From the IMG/VR virus record IMGVR_UViG_2778261687_000008: a stretch of DNA of 15,253 nt. One strand, written 5' to 3'. The notes beneath the pieces were generated by a model. It did not search any database. It worked only from the letters and a program-made list of their open reading frames with translations, and was not told the origin of the DNA. Source of the DNA: a virus. Lineage: Duplodnaviria; Heunggongvirae; Uroviricota; Caudoviricetes. Positions 3,263 through 15,253 of this stretch are shown piece by piece. Within the stretch, counting starts at the first letter, position 1. Each line of letters starts with the position of its first letter. Position numbers and translations under genes: made by a program.

Positions 3263-4345
3263 ATGAAAAAATTAACAGTGGCAATTTCTGCTGTAGCTGC
3301 ATCAGTACTGATGGCGATGTCTGCTCAGGCAGCTGAAATTTATAATAAAGACAGTAACAAGCTGGATCTGTACGGGAAAGTTAATGCTAAGCACTACTTC
3401 TCCTCTAATGATGCAGATGATGGTGATACTACTTATGCCCGTCTTGGCTTCAAAGGTGAAACCCAAATCAACGATCAGCTGACTGGTTTCGGTCAGTGGG
3501 AATATGAATTCAAAGGCAACCGCGCTGAATCTCAAGGTTCCTCCAAAGACAAAACCCGTCTTGCATTTGCAGGCCTGAAATTCGGTGACTACGGCTCAAT
3601 CGATTACGGCCGTAACTACGGTGTAGCATACGACATCGGTGCGTGGACTGACGTTCTGCCAGAATTCGGTGGCGATACCTGGACCCAAACAGATGTGTTC
3701 ATGACTGGTCGTACCACTGGTGTTGCAACCTATCGTAACAACGACTTCTTTGGTCTGGTTGATGGTCTGAACTTTGCTGCTCAGTATCAGGGTAAAAATG
3801 ACCGCACTGACGTAACTGAAGCTAATGGTGATGGTTTCGGTTTCTCCACTACTTATGAGTATGAAGGATTCGGTGTAGGTGCAACCTATGCTAAATCTGA
3901 CCGCACTAATAATCAGGTTATCTACGGTAACAACAGCCTGAATGCATCTGGTCAAAATGCTGAAGTATGGGCAGCTGGTCTGAAATATGATGCGAACAAC
4001 ATCTATCTGGCTACCACCTATTCTGAAACCCAGAACATGACTGTTTTTGGTAATAACCATATTGCCAACAAAGCACAAAACTTCGAAGTAGTTGCACAAT
4101 ATCAGTTCGACTTCGGTCTGCGTCCGTCCGTTGCTTACCTGCAATCTAAAGGAAAAGACTTGGGTGCGTGGGGTGATCAGGACCTGGTTGAATATATTGA
4201 TGTAGGTGCAACCTATTACTTCAACAAAAATATGTCCACTTTTGTTGATTACAAAATCAACCTGATTGATAAGAGCGATTTCACGAAAGCATCTGGCGTT
4301 GCTACCGATGATATCGTTGCTGTAGGTATGGTTTACCAGTTCTAA
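3263..4345 (+). CDS. nmpC: General bacterial porin, OmpC/OmpF/PhoE family (NmpC/Lc-type prophage porin), apparently intact
   Basis: 360 aa. Signal peptide ending AQA|AEIYNK, aromatic/glycine-rich beta-barrel pattern, C-terminal ...VYQF. AAAGGG Shine-Dalgarno upstream. Opposite strand to the flanking Q and lysis genes. Confidence 0.9.
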
Positions 4346-5002: not shown

Positions 5003-5140
5003 TCATACTCCTGCTCCTGTCAGGGTTTTGGCGTAATTCTTCAGTATTCGGTAATCGGTCAAAACAGAACCGGGGAAACGATATAAGCGCAGATGCCCCC
5101 AGCGGTGGCGAAGAAGTTCTGCCATATAAAACTCAAACAT
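5003..5140 (-). CDS. ylcG: Small protein YlcG-like (45 aa)
   Basis: Manually translated ([45 protein letters not shown]). Below the ORF-track length cutoff. Its ATG overlaps the rusA stop (TGATG). Confidence 0.55.
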   Translation of the reverse strand: MFEFYMAELLRHRWGHLRLYRFPGSVLTDYRILKNYAKTLTGAGV

Positions 5141-5501
5141 CATTCATTCCCCATTTCGGTGATGGTCAGTTCCAGCCTCCCACCTTTGGTAACAGGCATC
5201 TTCACAACGCGGTAATCAACGACCTGAGCATCATCCAGCCAGAAACCTGCTTTGGTGAGTGCGTCAAAAGCGGCTTTTTGCAGATTATCCAGGTCACGGC
5301 GACGGCGATCCGGCATGTGGCACTCAATACGGATTTTCACTGGCATAGCCAGGCCGATATCCAGCATTGCGTTTTTAATGATTCGGGTGACGTTATCGCG
5401 GTATGCCTGCCCTTCTGCGCTGATGTGTGTGCGCCCGCGATTATGGCGGTAATAGCGGTTATTGCTCGGAGGCCAGGGAATGTGATGCTGTAGGTATTCA
5501 C
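5140..5501 (-). CDS. rusA: RusA Holliday-junction resolvase; N-terminus is frame-disrupted (possible pseudogene or non-canonical start)
   Basis: The core ...[24 protein letters not shown]...[28 protein letters not shown]... is in one frame back to a stop at 5521-5523, with no ATG/GTG/TTG before the Met at 5365-5367. A GTG-NTYSIT N-terminus-like segment (5481-5501) sits in a different frame. Confidence 0.6.
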
Positions 5502-6504: not shown

Positions 6505-6832
6505 AAACGTCCCCGTTTAGCGCAAACCCACCGCCGGGTGTTCAGGCCGACAGTAACTATATTATTTCCTACTGTTTTTTAAAAATCAAAGGCCTTTATA
6601 CGTCACACGAGAGCAAATATTTCCGAAGAAGAAACCTTTCGCCTTGAAAGGATAAAGAGCTCATTTCATAAATTGAAATATTCAATAAGAATATTGCAAA
6701 AAATGAAATTATTTACTAGCGAGTCTATCTAACTGATAATTATGAAGATTGTAAGCGGTAGCAATCACCCGCATACACATTGAACAGGATTTAATACAAA
6801 ACGTCTTAAATTGTCCGTAAGGAATAGCACGA

Positions 6833-7849
6833 ATGACTCAAACTCCACTATTACTTGCAATCATATTTTTATTGGTTGTTCTTGTTCTATATATAGCTGC
6901 AATCAAACGCATCAAAAAAATACAATTAGAATTAAGTGATAGCAATCAAAAAAATGAAGAATACAAATCTCGCTTTGCAGATTATTTTAATGTGGAAGAG
7001 GAATGTAAGAAGCTTATTGAGAAAACAGAGCAAGAATGCTCCATTATAAAAGAAGAGTCCCAAAAAGTAAAAGAAAATGCCAATAATGAACTAACAAACA
7101 CCATTGAAAAAATGGATGGTATCAATAAACAAATCCAAGAACTAAGAAGAACTTATAAAGAGAAGAAAGAAATATATGATAAGCTAGTAAAGCAAATTTC
7201 TATTTATTCAGAAGATGTTGAACTAGCCGAACTAGGATTTTACGAACCTCATTTTAATTTTGAAGATTCAGAGCAATTTAAAAACAAAATAAAATCCATC
7301 AGGGATGAACAGAAATTAATGCTGCGGGATAAAACCCACTCTGGTGCAGTATATTGCACAACCCAATGGACTGTTGAAGGCTCTCGAGCAGAGGGTAAAA
7401 AAATGACAGACAGAAATATTAGGCTAACTACTAGAGCATTTAATAATGAATGTGATGCTGCAATTAGTAATTGCACGTGGAAAAATATCACTAAAATGGA
7501 AGAACGCATCACAAAGGCATTTGAGGACATAAATAAACTAAACGAGCAAAATCACATATATATAAATACTAAATACCTTAATAAAAAACTTGAGGAGTTG
7601 TGGCTTACCCATGAATATCGTGAGCAAAAACAGAAAGAAAAAGAAGAACAGGCAGAAATAAGGGCACAAATGAGAGAGGAGGAGCGTGCACAACGAGAAA
7701 TAGAAAAGGCCATGCAAGACGCAGAGGCAGAAGAGCGCCGTTATAAAAAAGCAATTGAAGCTGCAAGAAAGGAAATGGAAAAAGTTACTGGTGACATGAA
7801 GCAGCGCCTCGAAAATCGCATTGCCGAACTAGAACAGAGTTTGTCGTAG
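6833..7849 (+). CDS. Membrane-anchored coiled-coil protein (DUF4041-like N-terminal module; cargo gene A)
   Basis: 338 aa. Single N-terminal TM helix (LLLAIIFLLVVLVLYIAAI), then long E/K/Q-rich heptad-like coiled-coil segments and a highly charged C-terminus. AAGGA Shine-Dalgarno 10 nt upstream. AT-rich codon usage. Confidence 0.7.
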   Translation: MTQTPLLLAIIFLLVVLVLYIAAIKRIKKIQLELSDSNQKNEEYKSRFADYFNVEEECKKLIEKTEQECSIIKEESQKVKENANNELTNTIEKMDGINKQIQELRRTYKEKKEIYDKLVKQISIYSEDVELAELGFYEPHFNFEDSEQFKNKIKSIRDEQKLMLRDKTHSGAVYCTTQWTVEGSRAEGKKMTDRNIRLTTRAFNNECDAAISNCTWKNITKMEERITKAFEDINKLNEQNHIYINTKYLNKKLEELWLTHEYREQKQKEKEEQAEIRAQMREEERAQREIEKAMQDAEAEERRYKKAIEAARKEMEKVTGDMKQRLENRIAELEQSLS

Positions 7850-7879
7850 GCTGAATCAAAGCATCAAAGAGCATTATCC

Positions 7880-8335
7880 ATGGCACAACAAACCAAACAA
7901 GGTCATGTTTATATTATTTCGAACATAGGTTCTTTTGGGGAGAATGTTTATAAAATAGGCATGACACGACGTCTTGATCCACAAGACCGTGTAAATGAGC
8001 TTGGTGATGCATCTGTTCCTTTTATTTTTGATGTGCATGCCATGATTTATTCGGAGGACGCTCCATCATTAGAAAAAAAACTACATGATGTCTTCGATAA
8101 AAAGAGAGTCAATCTTGTAAATCGTAGAAAAGAGTTTTTCTATGTTACTCTGGATGAGATCAAAGAAGCTGTTAAAAAACACTCTGATTCAGAAATTGAA
8201 TTTATTGAGACAGCAGTCGCAAAAGACTTTAATGAGTCATTGGCTATTCGTAATCATGAAAATAAAAAAAGCGACAACAGCAACTCATCAATCATACTTG
8301 AGCGAAAAATCCCAGAGTTTGCAGATGTAATTTAA
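7880..8335 (+). CDS. T5orf172 / GIY-YIG-like nuclease-domain protein (cargo gene B); in frame with gene A across a single TAG
   Basis: 151 aa. Motifs GHVYIISN...VYKIGMTRR...R..EL...PF fit the GIY-YIG / T5orf172 (MUG113) pattern. Weak Shine-Dalgarno. Same reading frame as gene A with 10 sense codons between. Confidence 0.65.
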   Translation: MAQQTKQGHVYIISNIGSFGENVYKIGMTRRLDPQDRVNELGDASVPFIFDVHAMIYSEDAPSLEKKLHDVFDKKRVNLVNRRKEFFYVTLDEIKEAVKKHSDSEIEFIETAVAKDFNESLAIRNHENKKSDNSNSSIILERKIPEFADVI

Positions 8336-8694: not shown

Positions 8695-10242
8695 ATGACA
8701 AACAAAAACAAACTTGAGAACTTTGAAGACTTACTTCTGGGGAAGTTTTTAGATCCCATACATGGAGTGATTCGAATAACTAAGCTAGAAAAAAAGATAA
8801 TTGACCATCCTTTATTCCAACGACTACGAGATATCAGGCAGAACACGTTTCTATATAAAGTATTTCCTTCTGCAATGCACTCTCGCTTTGAACACTCTGT
8901 CGGTGTAATGCATTTATCGTATGAAATATTAAAAAATATTGATTTAAATGCACTAATTTACAATCGAAAAAATATGGGCATTGATCTATATTTAGATATA
9001 AAAAAAATGCCTTCAAGTCTTATACAGGAGTTACGTATTGCAGCATTGTTACACGATGTTGGGCATGGCCCACTTGCCCACCAATTCGATAGTTTTGCAA
9101 TATCCGTAAAAGATTTCAAAGAAAAATGCAAAACTGAAGGAAATAAACAATACGATAAGATTATATCTTTAAGTGATAATGACAAGTTAACCCACGAACA
9201 AGTATCATGTATTTTTATTAAAGAAATTATTGAAGAATTAAAAAATGAAGCCCAAGATAAATCAAATGACGACGATGTCTATAAAGAAAACATAGCGGCT
9301 ATTAATCCAGAAAGCATTATAAAAATTGTTGATAAAAGATATGATTTTAAAAATAACATTGAGGGAGTAAATGTATATCCTTTATTAGGTTCAATCATAT
9401 CATCTTCACCTATAGATGCGGACAGAATGGACTACCTACTTAGAGATAGCTACTTCTCCGGCGTTAAATATGGGATTTATGATTATGGACGATTATTAAT
9501 GTCATTTATTCCTGTGAAAGTTGAAAATAGTGTTTACCTGGCATATAAAGAAAGTGGTATGGATTCAATACTAGAATTTGCCAATGCAAGAAGTGGGCTT
9601 TATAGTCAAGTTTATTTTCATAAGACCAATCGTGCACTATCTGCGATGCTTAACAAAGCGTGTTCTAGAAAAAAAACTGATGATGTTGTCTATTTAAAAT
9701 CTAAAAACACTCTCATTGAGTCCATCAAACACTTTTATCGTGAAAACCCAGACAAAACGTTTTTAGAAAACACTCTTAAAAACACATTAGATAAAAATTC
9801 TCAAGCTATAATTCAAGATATTGTTGATAGAAATGTTTGGAAAAAAATATATGAAAAAAAACACACGTTTTCTAATGTTAACATTTCCGACAACAGATAC
9901 AAAGAATATAAACAAAATATATCTAAGAAAATCAACAAAATCATTGAGGATAATTTAAAAGGAGATGAATGGGTTCTTGATTTTCAGATTGAAGATAACT
10001 TTAAAGATATCGATACAAGTCAAGCTAAAATAATAAAAAAAGAAACAGGCGGCAAGTATACAATAAATGATTTATGTAAGTATAACGATGTACTTCAACC
10101 CTATCACTATGTTAAATTCTTTATTCGAGTTTTTGTTTCTAAGACAACTCAACTCCAAAACACCGAAGAAATTAATGTGTTAATAAAAAAAATAGATAAA
10201 TGTCTTAATGATGAGATTGATCATATTAAAAAAGACAAGTAG
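8695..10242 (+). CDS. HD-domain dNTP triphosphohydrolase, SAMHD1/dGTPase-like (cargo gene C)
   Basis: 515 aa. Motifs DPIHG (aa 20-24), RFEHSVGV (H67), LLHDVGHGPLAH (H120-D121) and DADRMDYLLRD (aa 241-251) align with the SAMHD1-type catalytic core as I recall it. AAGGAAAG Shine-Dalgarno. Lys-rich, divergent C-terminal third. Confidence 0.85.
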   Translation: MTNKNKLENFEDLLLGKFLDPIHGVIRITKLEKKIIDHPLFQRLRDIRQNTFLYKVFPSAMHSRFEHSVGVMHLSYEILKNIDLNALIYNRKNMGIDLYLDIKKMPSSLIQELRIAALLHDVGHGPLAHQFDSFAISVKDFKEKCKTEGNKQYDKIISLSDNDKLTHEQVSCIFIKEIIEELKNEAQDKSNDDDVYKENIAAINPESIIKIVDKRYDFKNNIEGVNVYPLLGSIISSSPIDADRMDYLLRDSYFSGVKYGIYDYGRLLMSFIPVKVENSVYLAYKESGMDSILEFANARSGLYSQVYFHKTNRALSAMLNKACSRKKTDDVVYLKSKNTLIESIKHFYRENPDKTFLENTLKNTLDKNSQAIIQDIVDRNVWKKIYEKKHTFSNVNISDNRYKEYKQNISKKINKIIEDNLKGDEWVLDFQIEDNFKDIDTSQAKIIKKETGGKYTINDLCKYNDVLQPYHYVKFFIRVFVSKTTQLQNTEEINVLIKKIDKCLNDEIDHIKKDK

Positions 10243-10894: not shown

Positions 10895-11592
10895 ACAGTT
10901 GCTCCTTTCAGTCCGAACTTCGCTTTGATTTCTGCGATCTTCGCCAGAGCCTGTGCACGATTTAGAGGTCTACCGCCCATGACAGGAAGTTGTTTTACTG
11001 GTTCAGGTATCGCCTCACCACGGTTAATTCGCGCGGTCATACAAGTCAGTTCATCGGCAGCCTTGCGCCGTAATTCCGCATCAGTAAGCGCATTGGCCCG
11101 CATGTTCTGGTACAGGTTGGTAACCAGCCAGTAGTGCGCGTTTGATTTCCACGGATAAGACTCTGCATCCGGATACAGGCCACGCTTCCGACAATACTCA
11201 TAGACCATATCAACCAGCTCGCTGACGTTTGGCAGCCCGGCGTTAACGGATGCTTCTTCCCGGCACCAGGCAACAAACTGCCCGGGTGATGGCAGGAATG
11301 GTCGATTCTGCCGACGGGCTACGCGCATTCCTGCGTTAACCTGTTCCATTGTGGTGATCCCGTTTTCCCGGAAAGCCAGCACCCACTGGCGGCGGATTTC
11401 GTTCAGTTCGTTCTGGTCCCGGTTAGCCAGGCTCGCCGGGAAAGTTGCCAGTAACTGGCTGAACACACCATTGATGATCTGCGCTACCTGTTGTACCTGC
11501 GGCTTTTCGTCGTACTGTTCCGGCATGTTGTTGGCGATCCGGCGCATCTGCTCACGGTCAAAGTTAACCATCTGTGCGGCGATGTTTTTCAT
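10891..11592 (-). CDS. P: Replication protein P (DnaB helicase loader), lambda P-like
   Basis: 233 aa, near-identical to lambda P as recalled. Start overlaps the O-fragment stop (ATGA). Confidence 0.9.
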   Translation of the reverse strand: MKNIAAQMVNFDREQMRRIANNMPEQYDEKPQVQQVAQIINGVFSQLLATFPASLANRDQNELNEIRRQWVLAFRENGITTMEQVNAGMRVARRQNRPFLPSPGQFVAWCREEASVNAGLPNVSELVDMVYEYCRKRGLYPDAESYPWKSNAHYWLVTNLYQNMRANALTDAELRRKAADELTCMTARINRGEAIPEPVKQLPVMGGRPLNRAQALAKIAEIKAKFGLKGATV

Positions 11593-11786
11593 AGCTCCAC
11601 CCCGTAAATCCAGTCAGTGTTCGTCAGGTCGAGTTTTGGTTTGCCGGCTGTCACGCCAGCCTGTTGCTTGTTTCGGTTGATTTCGAGCTGGGTCCACTTG
11701 TCGCGGAGTTTGGCCGGACTCAGCACGTTACCGGACCAGAAGTTGTCCTGGCATGCCCAGCGGAACAGTACACACATGTCGCGGTG
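11589..11786 (-). pseudogene. O: C-terminal fragment of replication initiator O (N-terminal origin-binding part absent)
   Basis: The frame ends ...FWSGNVLSPAKLRDKWTQLEINRNKQQAGVTAGKPKLDLTNTDWIYGVEL, matching the lambda O C-terminus. Upstream residues of the ORF are antisense to exo and not O-like. The upper boundary is approximate. Confidence 0.7.
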
Positions 11787-11787
11787 G

Positions 11788-11829
11788 TTCCTGAAACAGA
11801 AAGCCACTGAGCAGAAGGTGGCAGCATGA
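11788..11829 (+). pseudogene. bet: 3' remnant of bet (Red-beta) fused at a deletion junction
   Basis: Last about 13 codons encode [13 protein letters not shown] with the stop overlapping the exo ATG (ATGA), matching the lambda Bet C-terminus as recalled. Nothing Bet-like lies further upstream. Confidence 0.5.
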
Positions 11830-12506
11830 CACCGGACATTATCCTGCAGCGTACCGGGATCGACGTGAGAGCTGTCGAACAGGGGGATGATGCATGGCAC
11901 AAATTACGGCTCGGCGTCATCACCGCTTCAGAAGTTCACAACGTGATAGCAAAGCCCCGCTCAGGAAAGAAGTGGCCTGACATGAAAATGTCCTACTTCC
12001 ACACCCTGCTGGCTGAGGTTTGCACCGGTGTGGCTCCGGAAGTTAATGCTAAGGCGCTGGCCTGGGGAAAACAGTACGAGAACGACGCCAGAACCCTGTT
12101 TGAATTCACTTCCGGCGTGAATGTTACTGAATCCCCGATCATCTATCGCGACGAAAGTATGCGCACCGCCTGCTCTCCAGATGGTTTATGCAGTGACGGC
12201 AACGGCCTTGAACTGAAATGCCCGTTTACCTCCCGGGATTTCATGAAATTCCGGCTCGGTGGTTTTGAGGCAATAAAATCGGCTTACATGGCCCAGGTGC
12301 AGTACAGCATGTGGGTGACGCGAAAAGATGCCTGGTACTTTGCCAACTATGACCCGCGCATGAAGCGTGAAGGCCTGCATTATGTCGTGATTGAGCGGGA
12401 TGAAAAGTACATAGCGAGTTTTGACGAGATGGTGCCGGAGTTCATCGAAAAAATGGACGAGGCACTGGCTGAAATTGGTTTTGTATTTGGGGAGCAATGG
12501 CGATGA
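11826..12506 (+). CDS. exo: Lambda-type exonuclease (Red-alpha / Exo)
   Basis: 226 aa, near-identical to lambda Exo as recalled. Appears full-length. Confidence 0.9.
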
Positions 12507-13884: not shown

Positions 13885-14121
13885 ATGTCTCGACTAATCA
13901 CTTTACAGGACTGGGCTAAAGAAGAATTTGGGGACTTAGCACCAAGTGAGCGAGTTCTGAAAAAATACGCGCAAGGGAAAATGATGGCCCCACCCGCTAT
14001 AAAAGTTGGTCGCTACTGGATGATTGACCGAAATTCCCGTTTTGTAGGAACGCTGGCAGAACCGCAACTCCCAATAAACGCAAACCCAAAACTCCAACGG
14101 ATAATCGCTGATGGCTGCTAG
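13885..14121 (+). CDS. xis: Putative excisionase / recombination directionality factor
   Basis: 78-aa ORF with strong AAGAGGAGG Shine-Dalgarno. Ends 11 nt inside the integrase ORF, the typical xis-int arrangement. Not lambda-Xis-like in sequence. Confidence 0.55.
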   Translation: MSRLITLQDWAKEEFGDLAPSERVLKKYAQGKMMAPPAIKVGRYWMIDRNSRFVGTLAEPQLPINANPKLQRIIADGC

Positions 14122-15253
14122 ACCCCGATCTCACAAAATCTCTATACCCAATTTATATTGCAAATTAGATAAGCGAACCGGAAAGGTATATTGGCAATAC
14201 AAACATCCACTATCCGGTCGTTTTCATAGCTTAGGAACTGATGAGAATGAAGCAAAACAAGTTGCTACTGAAGCAAATACCATTATTGCTGAACAACGTA
14301 CCAGACAAATATTAAGCGTCAATGAGCGTCTGGAAAGAATGAAAGGCAGGCGCTCAGACATTACGGTGACAGAATGGCTTGATAAATATATTTCTATCCA
14401 GGAGGACAGGCTGCAACATAATGAACTAAGACCCAACTCCTATCGGCAAAAAGGCAAACCCATTCGTCTTTTCCGTGAGCATTGTGGAATGCAACACCTC
14501 AAGGATATTACCGCACTTGATATTGCCGAAATAATTGATGCTGTAAAGGCTGAAGGTCATAACAGGATGGCGCAAGTCGTGAGAATGGTGTTGATCGACG
14601 TCTTCAAAGAAGCACAACACGCAGGACATGTTCCGCCAGGATTTAACCCAGCGCAGGCAACAAAACAACCGCGAAATCGAGTAAACCGCCAAAGATTGTC
14701 ACTGCCCGAATGGCAGGCAATATTTGAAAGCGTAAGCAGACGGCAGCCCTATTTAAAATGCGGCATGCTACTTGCTCTTGTTACTGGACAACGTTTAGGC
14801 GATATCTGCAATTTGAAATTCTCTGATATATGGGACGACATGTTGCACATTACTCAGGAAAAAACCGGTTCAAAACTTGCTATTCCGCTTAACCTGAAAT
14901 GCGATGCTCTGAATATTACCCTTCGTGAAGTTATATCTCAGTGCAGGGATGCTGTTGTTAGTAAATATCTGGTCCATTACCGTCACACTACCTCTCAAGC
15001 AAACAGAGGAGACCAGGTTTCTGCAAATACTCTGACAACGGCTTTTAAAAAGGCCAGGGAAAAATGTGGCATAAAATGGGAGCAAGGAACTGCGCCCACA
15101 TTTCATGAGCAGCGATCTCTGTCAGAACGGTTATATCGGGAACAGGGTCTGGATACGCAAAAGTTGTTAGGCCATAAATCCAGAAAAATGACCGACCGAT
15201 ACAATGATGATCGTGGTAAAGACTGGGTTATCGTAGATATCAAAACAGCATAG
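14111..15253 (+). CDS. int: Phage integrase, tyrosine recombinase family
   Basis: 380 aa. C-terminal catalytic pattern: Arg box, HEQRS (HxxR), LLGHKS and Tyr in DRYNDD. Stop TAG is at the last bases of the window, so att sites are expected outside it. Confidence 0.9.
   Translation: MAARPRSHKISIPNLYCKLDKRTGKVYWQYKHPLSGRFHSLGTDENEAKQVATEANTIIAEQRTRQILSVNERLERMKGRRSDITVTEWLDKYISIQEDRLQHNELRPNSYRQKGKPIRLFREHCGMQHLKDITALDIAEIIDAVKAEGHNRMAQVVRMVLIDVFKEAQHAGHVPPGFNPAQATKQPRNRVNRQRLSLPEWQAIFESVSRRQPYLKCGMLLALVTGQRLGDICNLKFSDIWDDMLHITQEKTGSKLAIPLNLKCDALNITLREVISQCRDAVVSKYLVHYRHTTSQANRGDQVSANTLTTAFKKAREKCGIKWEQGTAPTFHEQRSLSERLYREQGLDTQKLLGHKSRKMTDRYNDDRGKDWVIVDIKTA

Follow-up and report, generated by a model that had tools for sequence, protein, structure and literature searches.

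A derived amber codon divides the phage defence gene SNIPE (PD-lambda-1), a probable recent pseudogene, in a decaying Escherichia coli prophage

Functional screening of the E. coli pangenome yielded the defence gene PD-lambda-1 (2022, PMC9519451), which was later characterised and renamed SNIPE, an anti-phage system made of one protein of 500 amino acids (Saxton et al., Nature 2026, PMC13190303). SNIPE was described as a single-pass inner-membrane protein that begins with a membrane anchor, continues through a coiled coil with DUF4041 and a linker helix, and ends in a GIY-YIG nuclease; DUF4041 and the nuclease lie on the cytoplasmic side, and residue 500 is taken as the C terminus (PMC13190303). 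The protein associates with ManYZ and with the phage tape measure protein, and phage DNA is cut during injection (PMC13190303). The defence is directed against lambda and other siphoviruses. Defence was lost with the substitution E414A or when DUF4041 was deleted, and SNIPE without its membrane anchor was toxic, the nuclease then cleaving host DNA; the published protein thus requires all three modules (PMC13190303).

We examined a relative of this gene in a 15,253-nt stretch of DNA, hereafter the window, which is a lambdoid prophage of E. coli. The published gene has the same kind of setting, being a moron of lambdoid E. coli prophages. On one side of the window gene lie bor, the lysis genes, a porin gene, Q, rusA, ybcO, ninE and ybcN, and on the other side an HD-domain gene, ren and P. 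The coordinates of the main features are collected in Table 1. Translation of 6833–8335 in one frame gave 501 codons with a sole internal stop, reading IAELEQSLS, stop, AESKHQRALSMAQQTKQGHVYIISN (closer around the TAG: AELEQSLS, stop, AESKHQRALSMAQQTK). The TAG is followed by ten sense codons and then by the ATG of ORF B, with no other stop between them. A first-pass annotation of this DNA had placed ORF A and ORF B in the same frame, separated by one TAG and ten sense codons, and the translation confirmed this arrangement.

Table 1. Features of the divided SNIPE gene and of the surrounding prophage (window coordinates), and lesions of other disrupted SNIPE alleles (codon positions).
Feature	Position	Strand	Description
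Shine-Dalgarno AAGGAA of the SNIPE start	6819..6824	+	anti-SD duplex −6.1 kcal/mol for the 17 nt before ATG 6833
Whole SNIPE (PD-lambda-1) gene with Q339amber	6833..8335	+	500 codons plus stop; length and frame match the intact 1503-nt CDSs
ORF A	6833..7849	+	338 aa, ATG start; coding part 6833..7846 = SNIPE residues 1–338; hydrophobic N-terminal putative anchor (about 5–23), coiled coil, DUF4041 (Pfam 198–252) and most of the downstream alpha-helix/linker
Amber codon TAG	7847..7849	+	derived from CAG (Gln339) by a C-to-T transition at 7847
Ten linker codons AESKHQRALS	7850..7879	+	SNIPE residues 340–349, end of linker helix
ORF B	7880..8335	+	151 aa, ATG start; SNIPE residues 350–500, GIY-YIG (T5orf172/MUG113) nuclease domain
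Porin gene	3263..4345	+	360 aa
rusA	5140..5501	-	1-nt deletion at 5478
HD-domain gene	8695..10242	+	515 aa, directly downstream of SNIPE
Deletion junction	about 11589..11830		near 11789; 62-codon remnant of gene O fused to exo
exo (YqaJ)	11826..12506
Integrase gene	14111..15253
HH45	codon 77		1-nt deletion
TB354	about codon 192; codon 414		IS1; deletion
LP-26-E1-261	about codon 200		IS5
Evo1	about codon 229		IS1
P0010	about codon 347		frameshift
P0014	about codon 441		frameshift

Profile searches assigned both reading frames to the SNIPE family. ORF A matched Pfam family PF13250 (DUF4041, now named SNIPE; E=1.1e-19, residues 198–252), and ORF B matched two GIY-YIG-type families, PF10544 (T5orf172, E=3.1e-18) and PF13455 (MUG113, E=4.8e-20); the coiled-coil/DUF4041 and GIY-YIG/T5orf172 domains named in the first-pass annotation were correct. 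The annotation had also mentioned fusions of DUF4041 to T5orf172 in proteins of about 450–500 aa, and such a fusion is real, being the PADLOC family PD-Lambda-1, or SNIPE. On the PADLOC model for this family (PDLC03976, 491 positions), ORF A covered profile positions 1–337 (E=2.4e-105) and ORF B positions 350–485 (E=4.2e-82). The 12 profile positions missing between the two hits correspond exactly to the stop and the ten linker codons, so that ORF A and ORF B together are collinear with a single protein. By comparison, an intact allele of 500 aa from E. coli (P0001) matched positions 1–485 in one stretch (657.9 bits, E=2.5e-198).

The conceptual read-through protein of the window agrees with published SNIPE in its 500 codons, in its end-to-end match to the PADLOC model, and in the order of its modules (coiled coil and DUF4041, helix, GIY-YIG nuclease, preceded by a putative membrane anchor). 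Each of the nine residues that PMC13190303 names occurs at the same number: E223, N250, L253, W257, E264, K305, I308, T319 and E414. The catalytic E414 is present in ORF B and is invariant across eight aligned homologues. Residues 5–23, read from the translation and numbered as in the protein whose topology was tested, form an uncharged hydrophobic run, LLLAIIFLLVVLVLYIAAI. As judged from these sequence comparisons, the window gene is SNIPE itself, formerly PD-lambda-1; that is, it is an already known and experimentally characterised defence gene. In contrast to published SNIPE, codon 339 is TAG and not CAG, and the anchor and DUF4041 are severed from the nuclease, so that modules which act together in the published protein are split and no single polypeptide read from this gene up to its first stop carries all three. 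We concluded that the locus is a member of the SNIPE family by descent, but a disrupted one.

The 1.8-kb region with this gene was found at 90% identity or more in 131 of 5,426 complete E. coli genomes, where most annotations show one 'DUF4041' or 'SNIPE associated domain-containing protein'; in phage PhiR26_1 the same gene is annotated 'PD-lambda-1'. The intact alleles at loci L001 to L003 are single 1503-nt CDSs with CAG at the position of 7847–7849. The closest of them, from E. coli 730V1 (WP_191113392.1) and B-1109 (WP_137044353.1), each differ from window 6833–8335 by 2 nt of 1503, and one of the two differences is the C-to-T change at 7847 that turns CAG (Gln339) into TAG; the linker and ORF B show zero differences. 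These two alleles, which bear the name 'DUF4041 domain-containing protein' or 'SNIPE associated domain-containing protein', sit in prophages that are 99.9% identical to the window over 11.8 kb and share its ybcN, HD-domain gene, ren and P as neighbours. They differ from it in having CAG at codon 339 and an intact rusA, and B-1109 also has an intact O-cII-cro-cI region.

Codon 339 was CAG in all seven of the non-TAG loci of E. coli and phage that were read (L001, L002, L003, L007, L013, L014 and L015), and among the loci read TAG occurred only in L004, L005 and L006. None of the 131 complete E. coli genomes with the locus contained, letter for letter, the 61-mer of the window centred on the TAG (best matches 60/61), and an exact search of one-genome-per-species contigs with a TAG 34-mer gave no match. 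We considered whether a Dcm hot spot had caused the change and ruled this out; the ancestral context, TCGCAGGCT, is not CCAGG and is not a Dcm site, which makes the lesion an ordinary C-to-T transition. These comparisons indicate that a single, derived and recent C-to-T change made Gln339 a stop. They support the first option of the first-pass annotation, that of a nonsense mutation in what was once a single fusion gene.

Homologues outside this allele class gave the same picture at the junction. A tblastn search with the intact protein matched 41 of 50,697 phage records, and nearly all of the 40 records listed aligned as one piece, in one frame, spanning residue 339 (for example, pieces 28–473, 33–472, 42–473 and 201–470). 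The hosts of these phages were Klebsiella, Salmonella, Clostridium, Streptococcus, Corynebacterium, Lactobacillus, Mycobacterium, Marinitoga and Synechococcus, and the annotated homologue CDSs were single genes of 409–522 aa. Five distant single-ORF relatives were compared with the window protein, in which codon 339 was written as X for the alignment: Salmonella phage ES18 gp19, Klebsiella phage ST13-OXA48phi12.3, Clostridium phage CDMH1 gp42, Streptococcus phage EJ-1 ORF3 and phiP27 L22. At 32–53% identity, they join DUF4041 and the helix to a GIY-YIG domain of the same kind; they differ in their variable N-terminal regions and have no stop or gene boundary at the junction. The stretch from the helix end into the nuclease domain (ALSMAQQTKQGHVYIISNIGSFGEN) aligned gap-free across homologues, including residues 330–360 and the whole linker. 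Residue 339 was Q, E, L or D in the homologues (E, L or D in the distant ones). Residue 350, the Met of ATG 7880, was Q or R in the homologues from ES18, CDMH1 and EJ-1. Because Met350 is not conserved as Met, ATG 7880 is best read as an ordinary internal codon and not as a conserved start. One of the relatives, phiP27 L22, had been a candidate stand-alone nuclease, and this was ruled out, since it is a single protein of 409 aa with a different N-terminal part.

The alignments thus indicate that the linker at 7850–7879 is former coding sequence and not an intergenic spacer. The first-pass annotation had cautioned that an open run of ten codons is not by itself strong evidence, and indeed the point was decided by homology and not by statistics. 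It had also named an outcome that would speak against an interrupted fusion, namely homologues consistently encoded as two genes with their own ribosome-binding sites and no alignment across the linker. What we found was the reverse: the homologues are single genes, and the linker aligns in close and distant relatives alike. No conserved split was found among them.

When the 338-aa product was looked up by exact protein match, three datasets proved to contain it, each with the 151-aa ORF following. In assembly GCA_002226155.1, bases 300–15552 of contig NLGV01000034.1 are the window and are identical to it. The Logan assembly of SRR9914100 is identical to the window over 11,980 nt, and that of DRR386160 (L006) shows 2 differences in 4,271 nt. 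One of the latter, at 3439 of the contig (window 7935, T to C), is F368S in the nuclease domain, a single change in one read-derived (Logan) contig. F368 is invariant in eight homologues, down to 32% identity. As a single observation, F368S goes the way that would be expected had selection on the nuclease part ceased.

Taken together, we believe that the locus is very probably a Q339amber (7847 C-to-T) nonsense allele of SNIPE, and so a recent pseudogene in a decaying prophage. Three other readings were weighed against this one. The first is that the gene depends on readthrough or on a suppressor, so that near-cognate or suppressor-tRNA decoding of UAG would yield a low level of full-length SNIPE and a reduced or conditional defence. 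The frame downstream of the stop is still open, and the ancestral codon was CAG, so that a glutamine-inserting amber suppressor (supE/glnV44 type) would restore exactly the wild-type protein. Against this, programmed readthrough predicts a conserved stop, and the stop is conserved in no relative; the junction RNA (7830–7930) was no more structured than its shuffles (z=+0.71); and no tRNA gene and no Rfam family match were found within the window. In short, none of these results suggests recoding. Furthermore, amber suppressors are not known as a normal trait of natural E. coli isolates. We consider readthrough very improbable, and the suggestion of a readthrough-dependent product in the first-pass annotation was not supported.

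The second reading is a functional split, in which ribosomes re-initiate at ATG 7880 and produce a free 151-aa GIY-YIG nuclease that works alone or in trans with the 338-aa membrane-anchored fragment. The geometry allows it: only 30 nt separate the stop from ATG 7880, which shares its frame, no other start codon falls between them, the minimal motif AAGAG is found 8 nt before the ATG, and ORF B is intact in the window. Re-initiation after termination over such distances is classical in E. coli, as in the restart mutants of lacI and of T4 rIIB. The allele has also lasted long enough to appear in three datasets. However, no homologue is so arranged, either among the 131 E. coli genomes or among the 41 phage records. 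The anti-SD duplex at ATG 7880 amounts to only −2.1 kcal/mol versus −6.1 kcal/mol at ATG 6833, and six other internal in-frame ATGs outscore it; the weak Shine-Dalgarno noted in the first-pass annotation was therefore confirmed, and with no dedicated ribosome-binding site, no conserved stop and no conserved Met350, its option of an evolved split was left without support. (A promoter and terminator scan gave counts not above those of shuffled sequence and was uninformative.) The F368S change at an invariant residue in one strain of the TAG lineage also argues against a nuclease that is still in use. Finally, anchorless SNIPE is toxic through cleavage of host DNA, and DUF4041, which defence needs, would be unlinked from the nuclease (PMC13190303). 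Because a free nuclease domain would be without the anchor and without DUF4041, both of which are required, it is predicted to be dead for defence. We regard the functional split as very improbable.

A related and more speculative form of this idea, to which we give just as little credence, is that Q339amber is a natural, tolerated split. Re-initiation at Met350 would free the nuclease from the anchor and from the DNA-binding DUF4041, while the anchor fragment would still sit at the ManYZ/tape-measure injection site. Such an allele might retain a residual or altered defence, or might be a conditional system that is fully active only under amber suppression, such as by a suppressor tRNA carried by a phage.

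The third reading, that the true codon is CAG and the TAG is a base-call or assembly error in an intact gene, draws on the single base that separates the window from intact alleles and on the draft status of the source assembly (NLGV01000034.1), but it is extremely improbable, because the TAG is shared by three separately sequenced and assembled datasets, one of which differs at two other positions and hence comes from another isolate. The sharing of the TAG shows that it is a real, inherited allele of a small clone.

Returning to the nonsense allele, its consequences can be sketched from the published mechanism, with the position of the break relative to the domains taken from Pfam boundaries and from the text of the SNIPE paper. 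In intact SNIPE, the N-terminal region and DUF4041 place the nuclease at the injection site (ManYZ, tape measure protein), where incoming phage DNA is cut. In the Q339amber allele, translation would run only as far as the linker helix, at its C-terminal end. This would give, as the main product, a 338-aa membrane-anchored fragment with DUF4041 and without the nuclease, and the 151-codon nuclease part would be left as an untranslated or poorly translated remnant. Expression of ORF B is expected to be low. ORF B is identical to intact alleles, as fits a very recent event, and an absence of expression can therefore not be read from decay of its sequence. The expected outcome is that defence is lost, because the fragment has no nuclease and the substitution E414A is by itself enough to abolish defence; on the published mutant phenotypes, loss of defence is the most likely result.

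Disruption of SNIPE is not peculiar to this lineage. In at least eight of the 60 best-matching complete-genome records, the gene is split or IS-interrupted in the annotation; the 90% cluster of SNIPE counts 975 members. The alleles HH45, Evo1, TB354, LP-26-E1-261, P0010 and P0014 (Table 1) resemble that of the window in that the gene is inactivated and annotated as two ORFs, and the 151-aa product of ORF B is also called in the frameshift allele P0010. They differ in the type and position of the lesion (codons about 77 to 441), and they keep CAG at codon 339. We asked whether lesions cluster at the linker, as selection for a split would predict, and ruled this out. The others lie at codons of about 77, 192, 200, 229, 414 and 441, and only the one at about 347 is nearby. 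Two close lesions among about eight are expected by chance, and the spread of lesions along the gene gives no sign of selection for a break in the linker.

The prophage itself is decaying. Compared with loci L002 and L003, rusA has lost one nucleotide, leaving an ORF of 75 aa in place of 120 aa. At the deletion junction near 11789, a remnant of gene O is fused to exo, and the cII-cro-cI-kil-gam-bet block of B-1109 and PhiR26_1 is absent. Without an immunity region or an intact O, the prophage is probably cryptic. The decay seen in rusA, at the O-exo junction and in F368S agrees with the reading of the SNIPE locus as a pseudogene. The rusA deletion is common to the DRR386160 contig, and is a second inactivating lesion in the TAG lineage.

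In practical terms, the two NCBI proteins WP_249538055.1 and WP_249538056.1 should be read as one SNIPE pseudogene, and the strain should not be scored as having active SNIPE/PD-lambda-1 by defence finders that accept partial hits. Beyond annotation and the scoring of defence content the allele is of little importance, being an ordinary broken gene. Of modest wider value are the repeated, independent knock-outs of SNIPE in E. coli prophages by amber, frameshift, IS1 and IS5 lesions, and such repeated loss is in keeping with a defence gene that can be spared, or is a burden, where the phages it targets do not occur. The allele of the window parts the anchor and DUF4041 from the nuclease at a domain boundary, and it could serve as a natural control in SNIPE experiments.

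Several other features of the prophage were observed. The protein encoded directly downstream of SNIPE carries an HD domain (PF01966, E=1.2e-6), and matched the PADLOC dGTPase only at E=0.0018. Its gene accompanies the 99% SNIPE allele class and is absent from the 97.7% class, in which ren directly follows SNIPE. The DNA between ybcN and ren is AT-rich, with about 30% GC over the HD gene and 33–37% over SNIPE. The HD gene may be a second, uncharacterised defence moron. The porin gene is intact (Porin_1, E=3e-153), is called ompC or OmpD in the annotation of relatives, and has the lysis genes on one side and Q on the other, which is where DLP12-type prophages carry nmpC. Lastly, on the source contig (L004), the integrase gene adjoins a gene for isocitrate dehydrogenase (PF00180) at contig bases 15666–16148, just past the window end at window position 15253, which places the prophage at icd, the attachment site of phage 21 and of e14-type elements.
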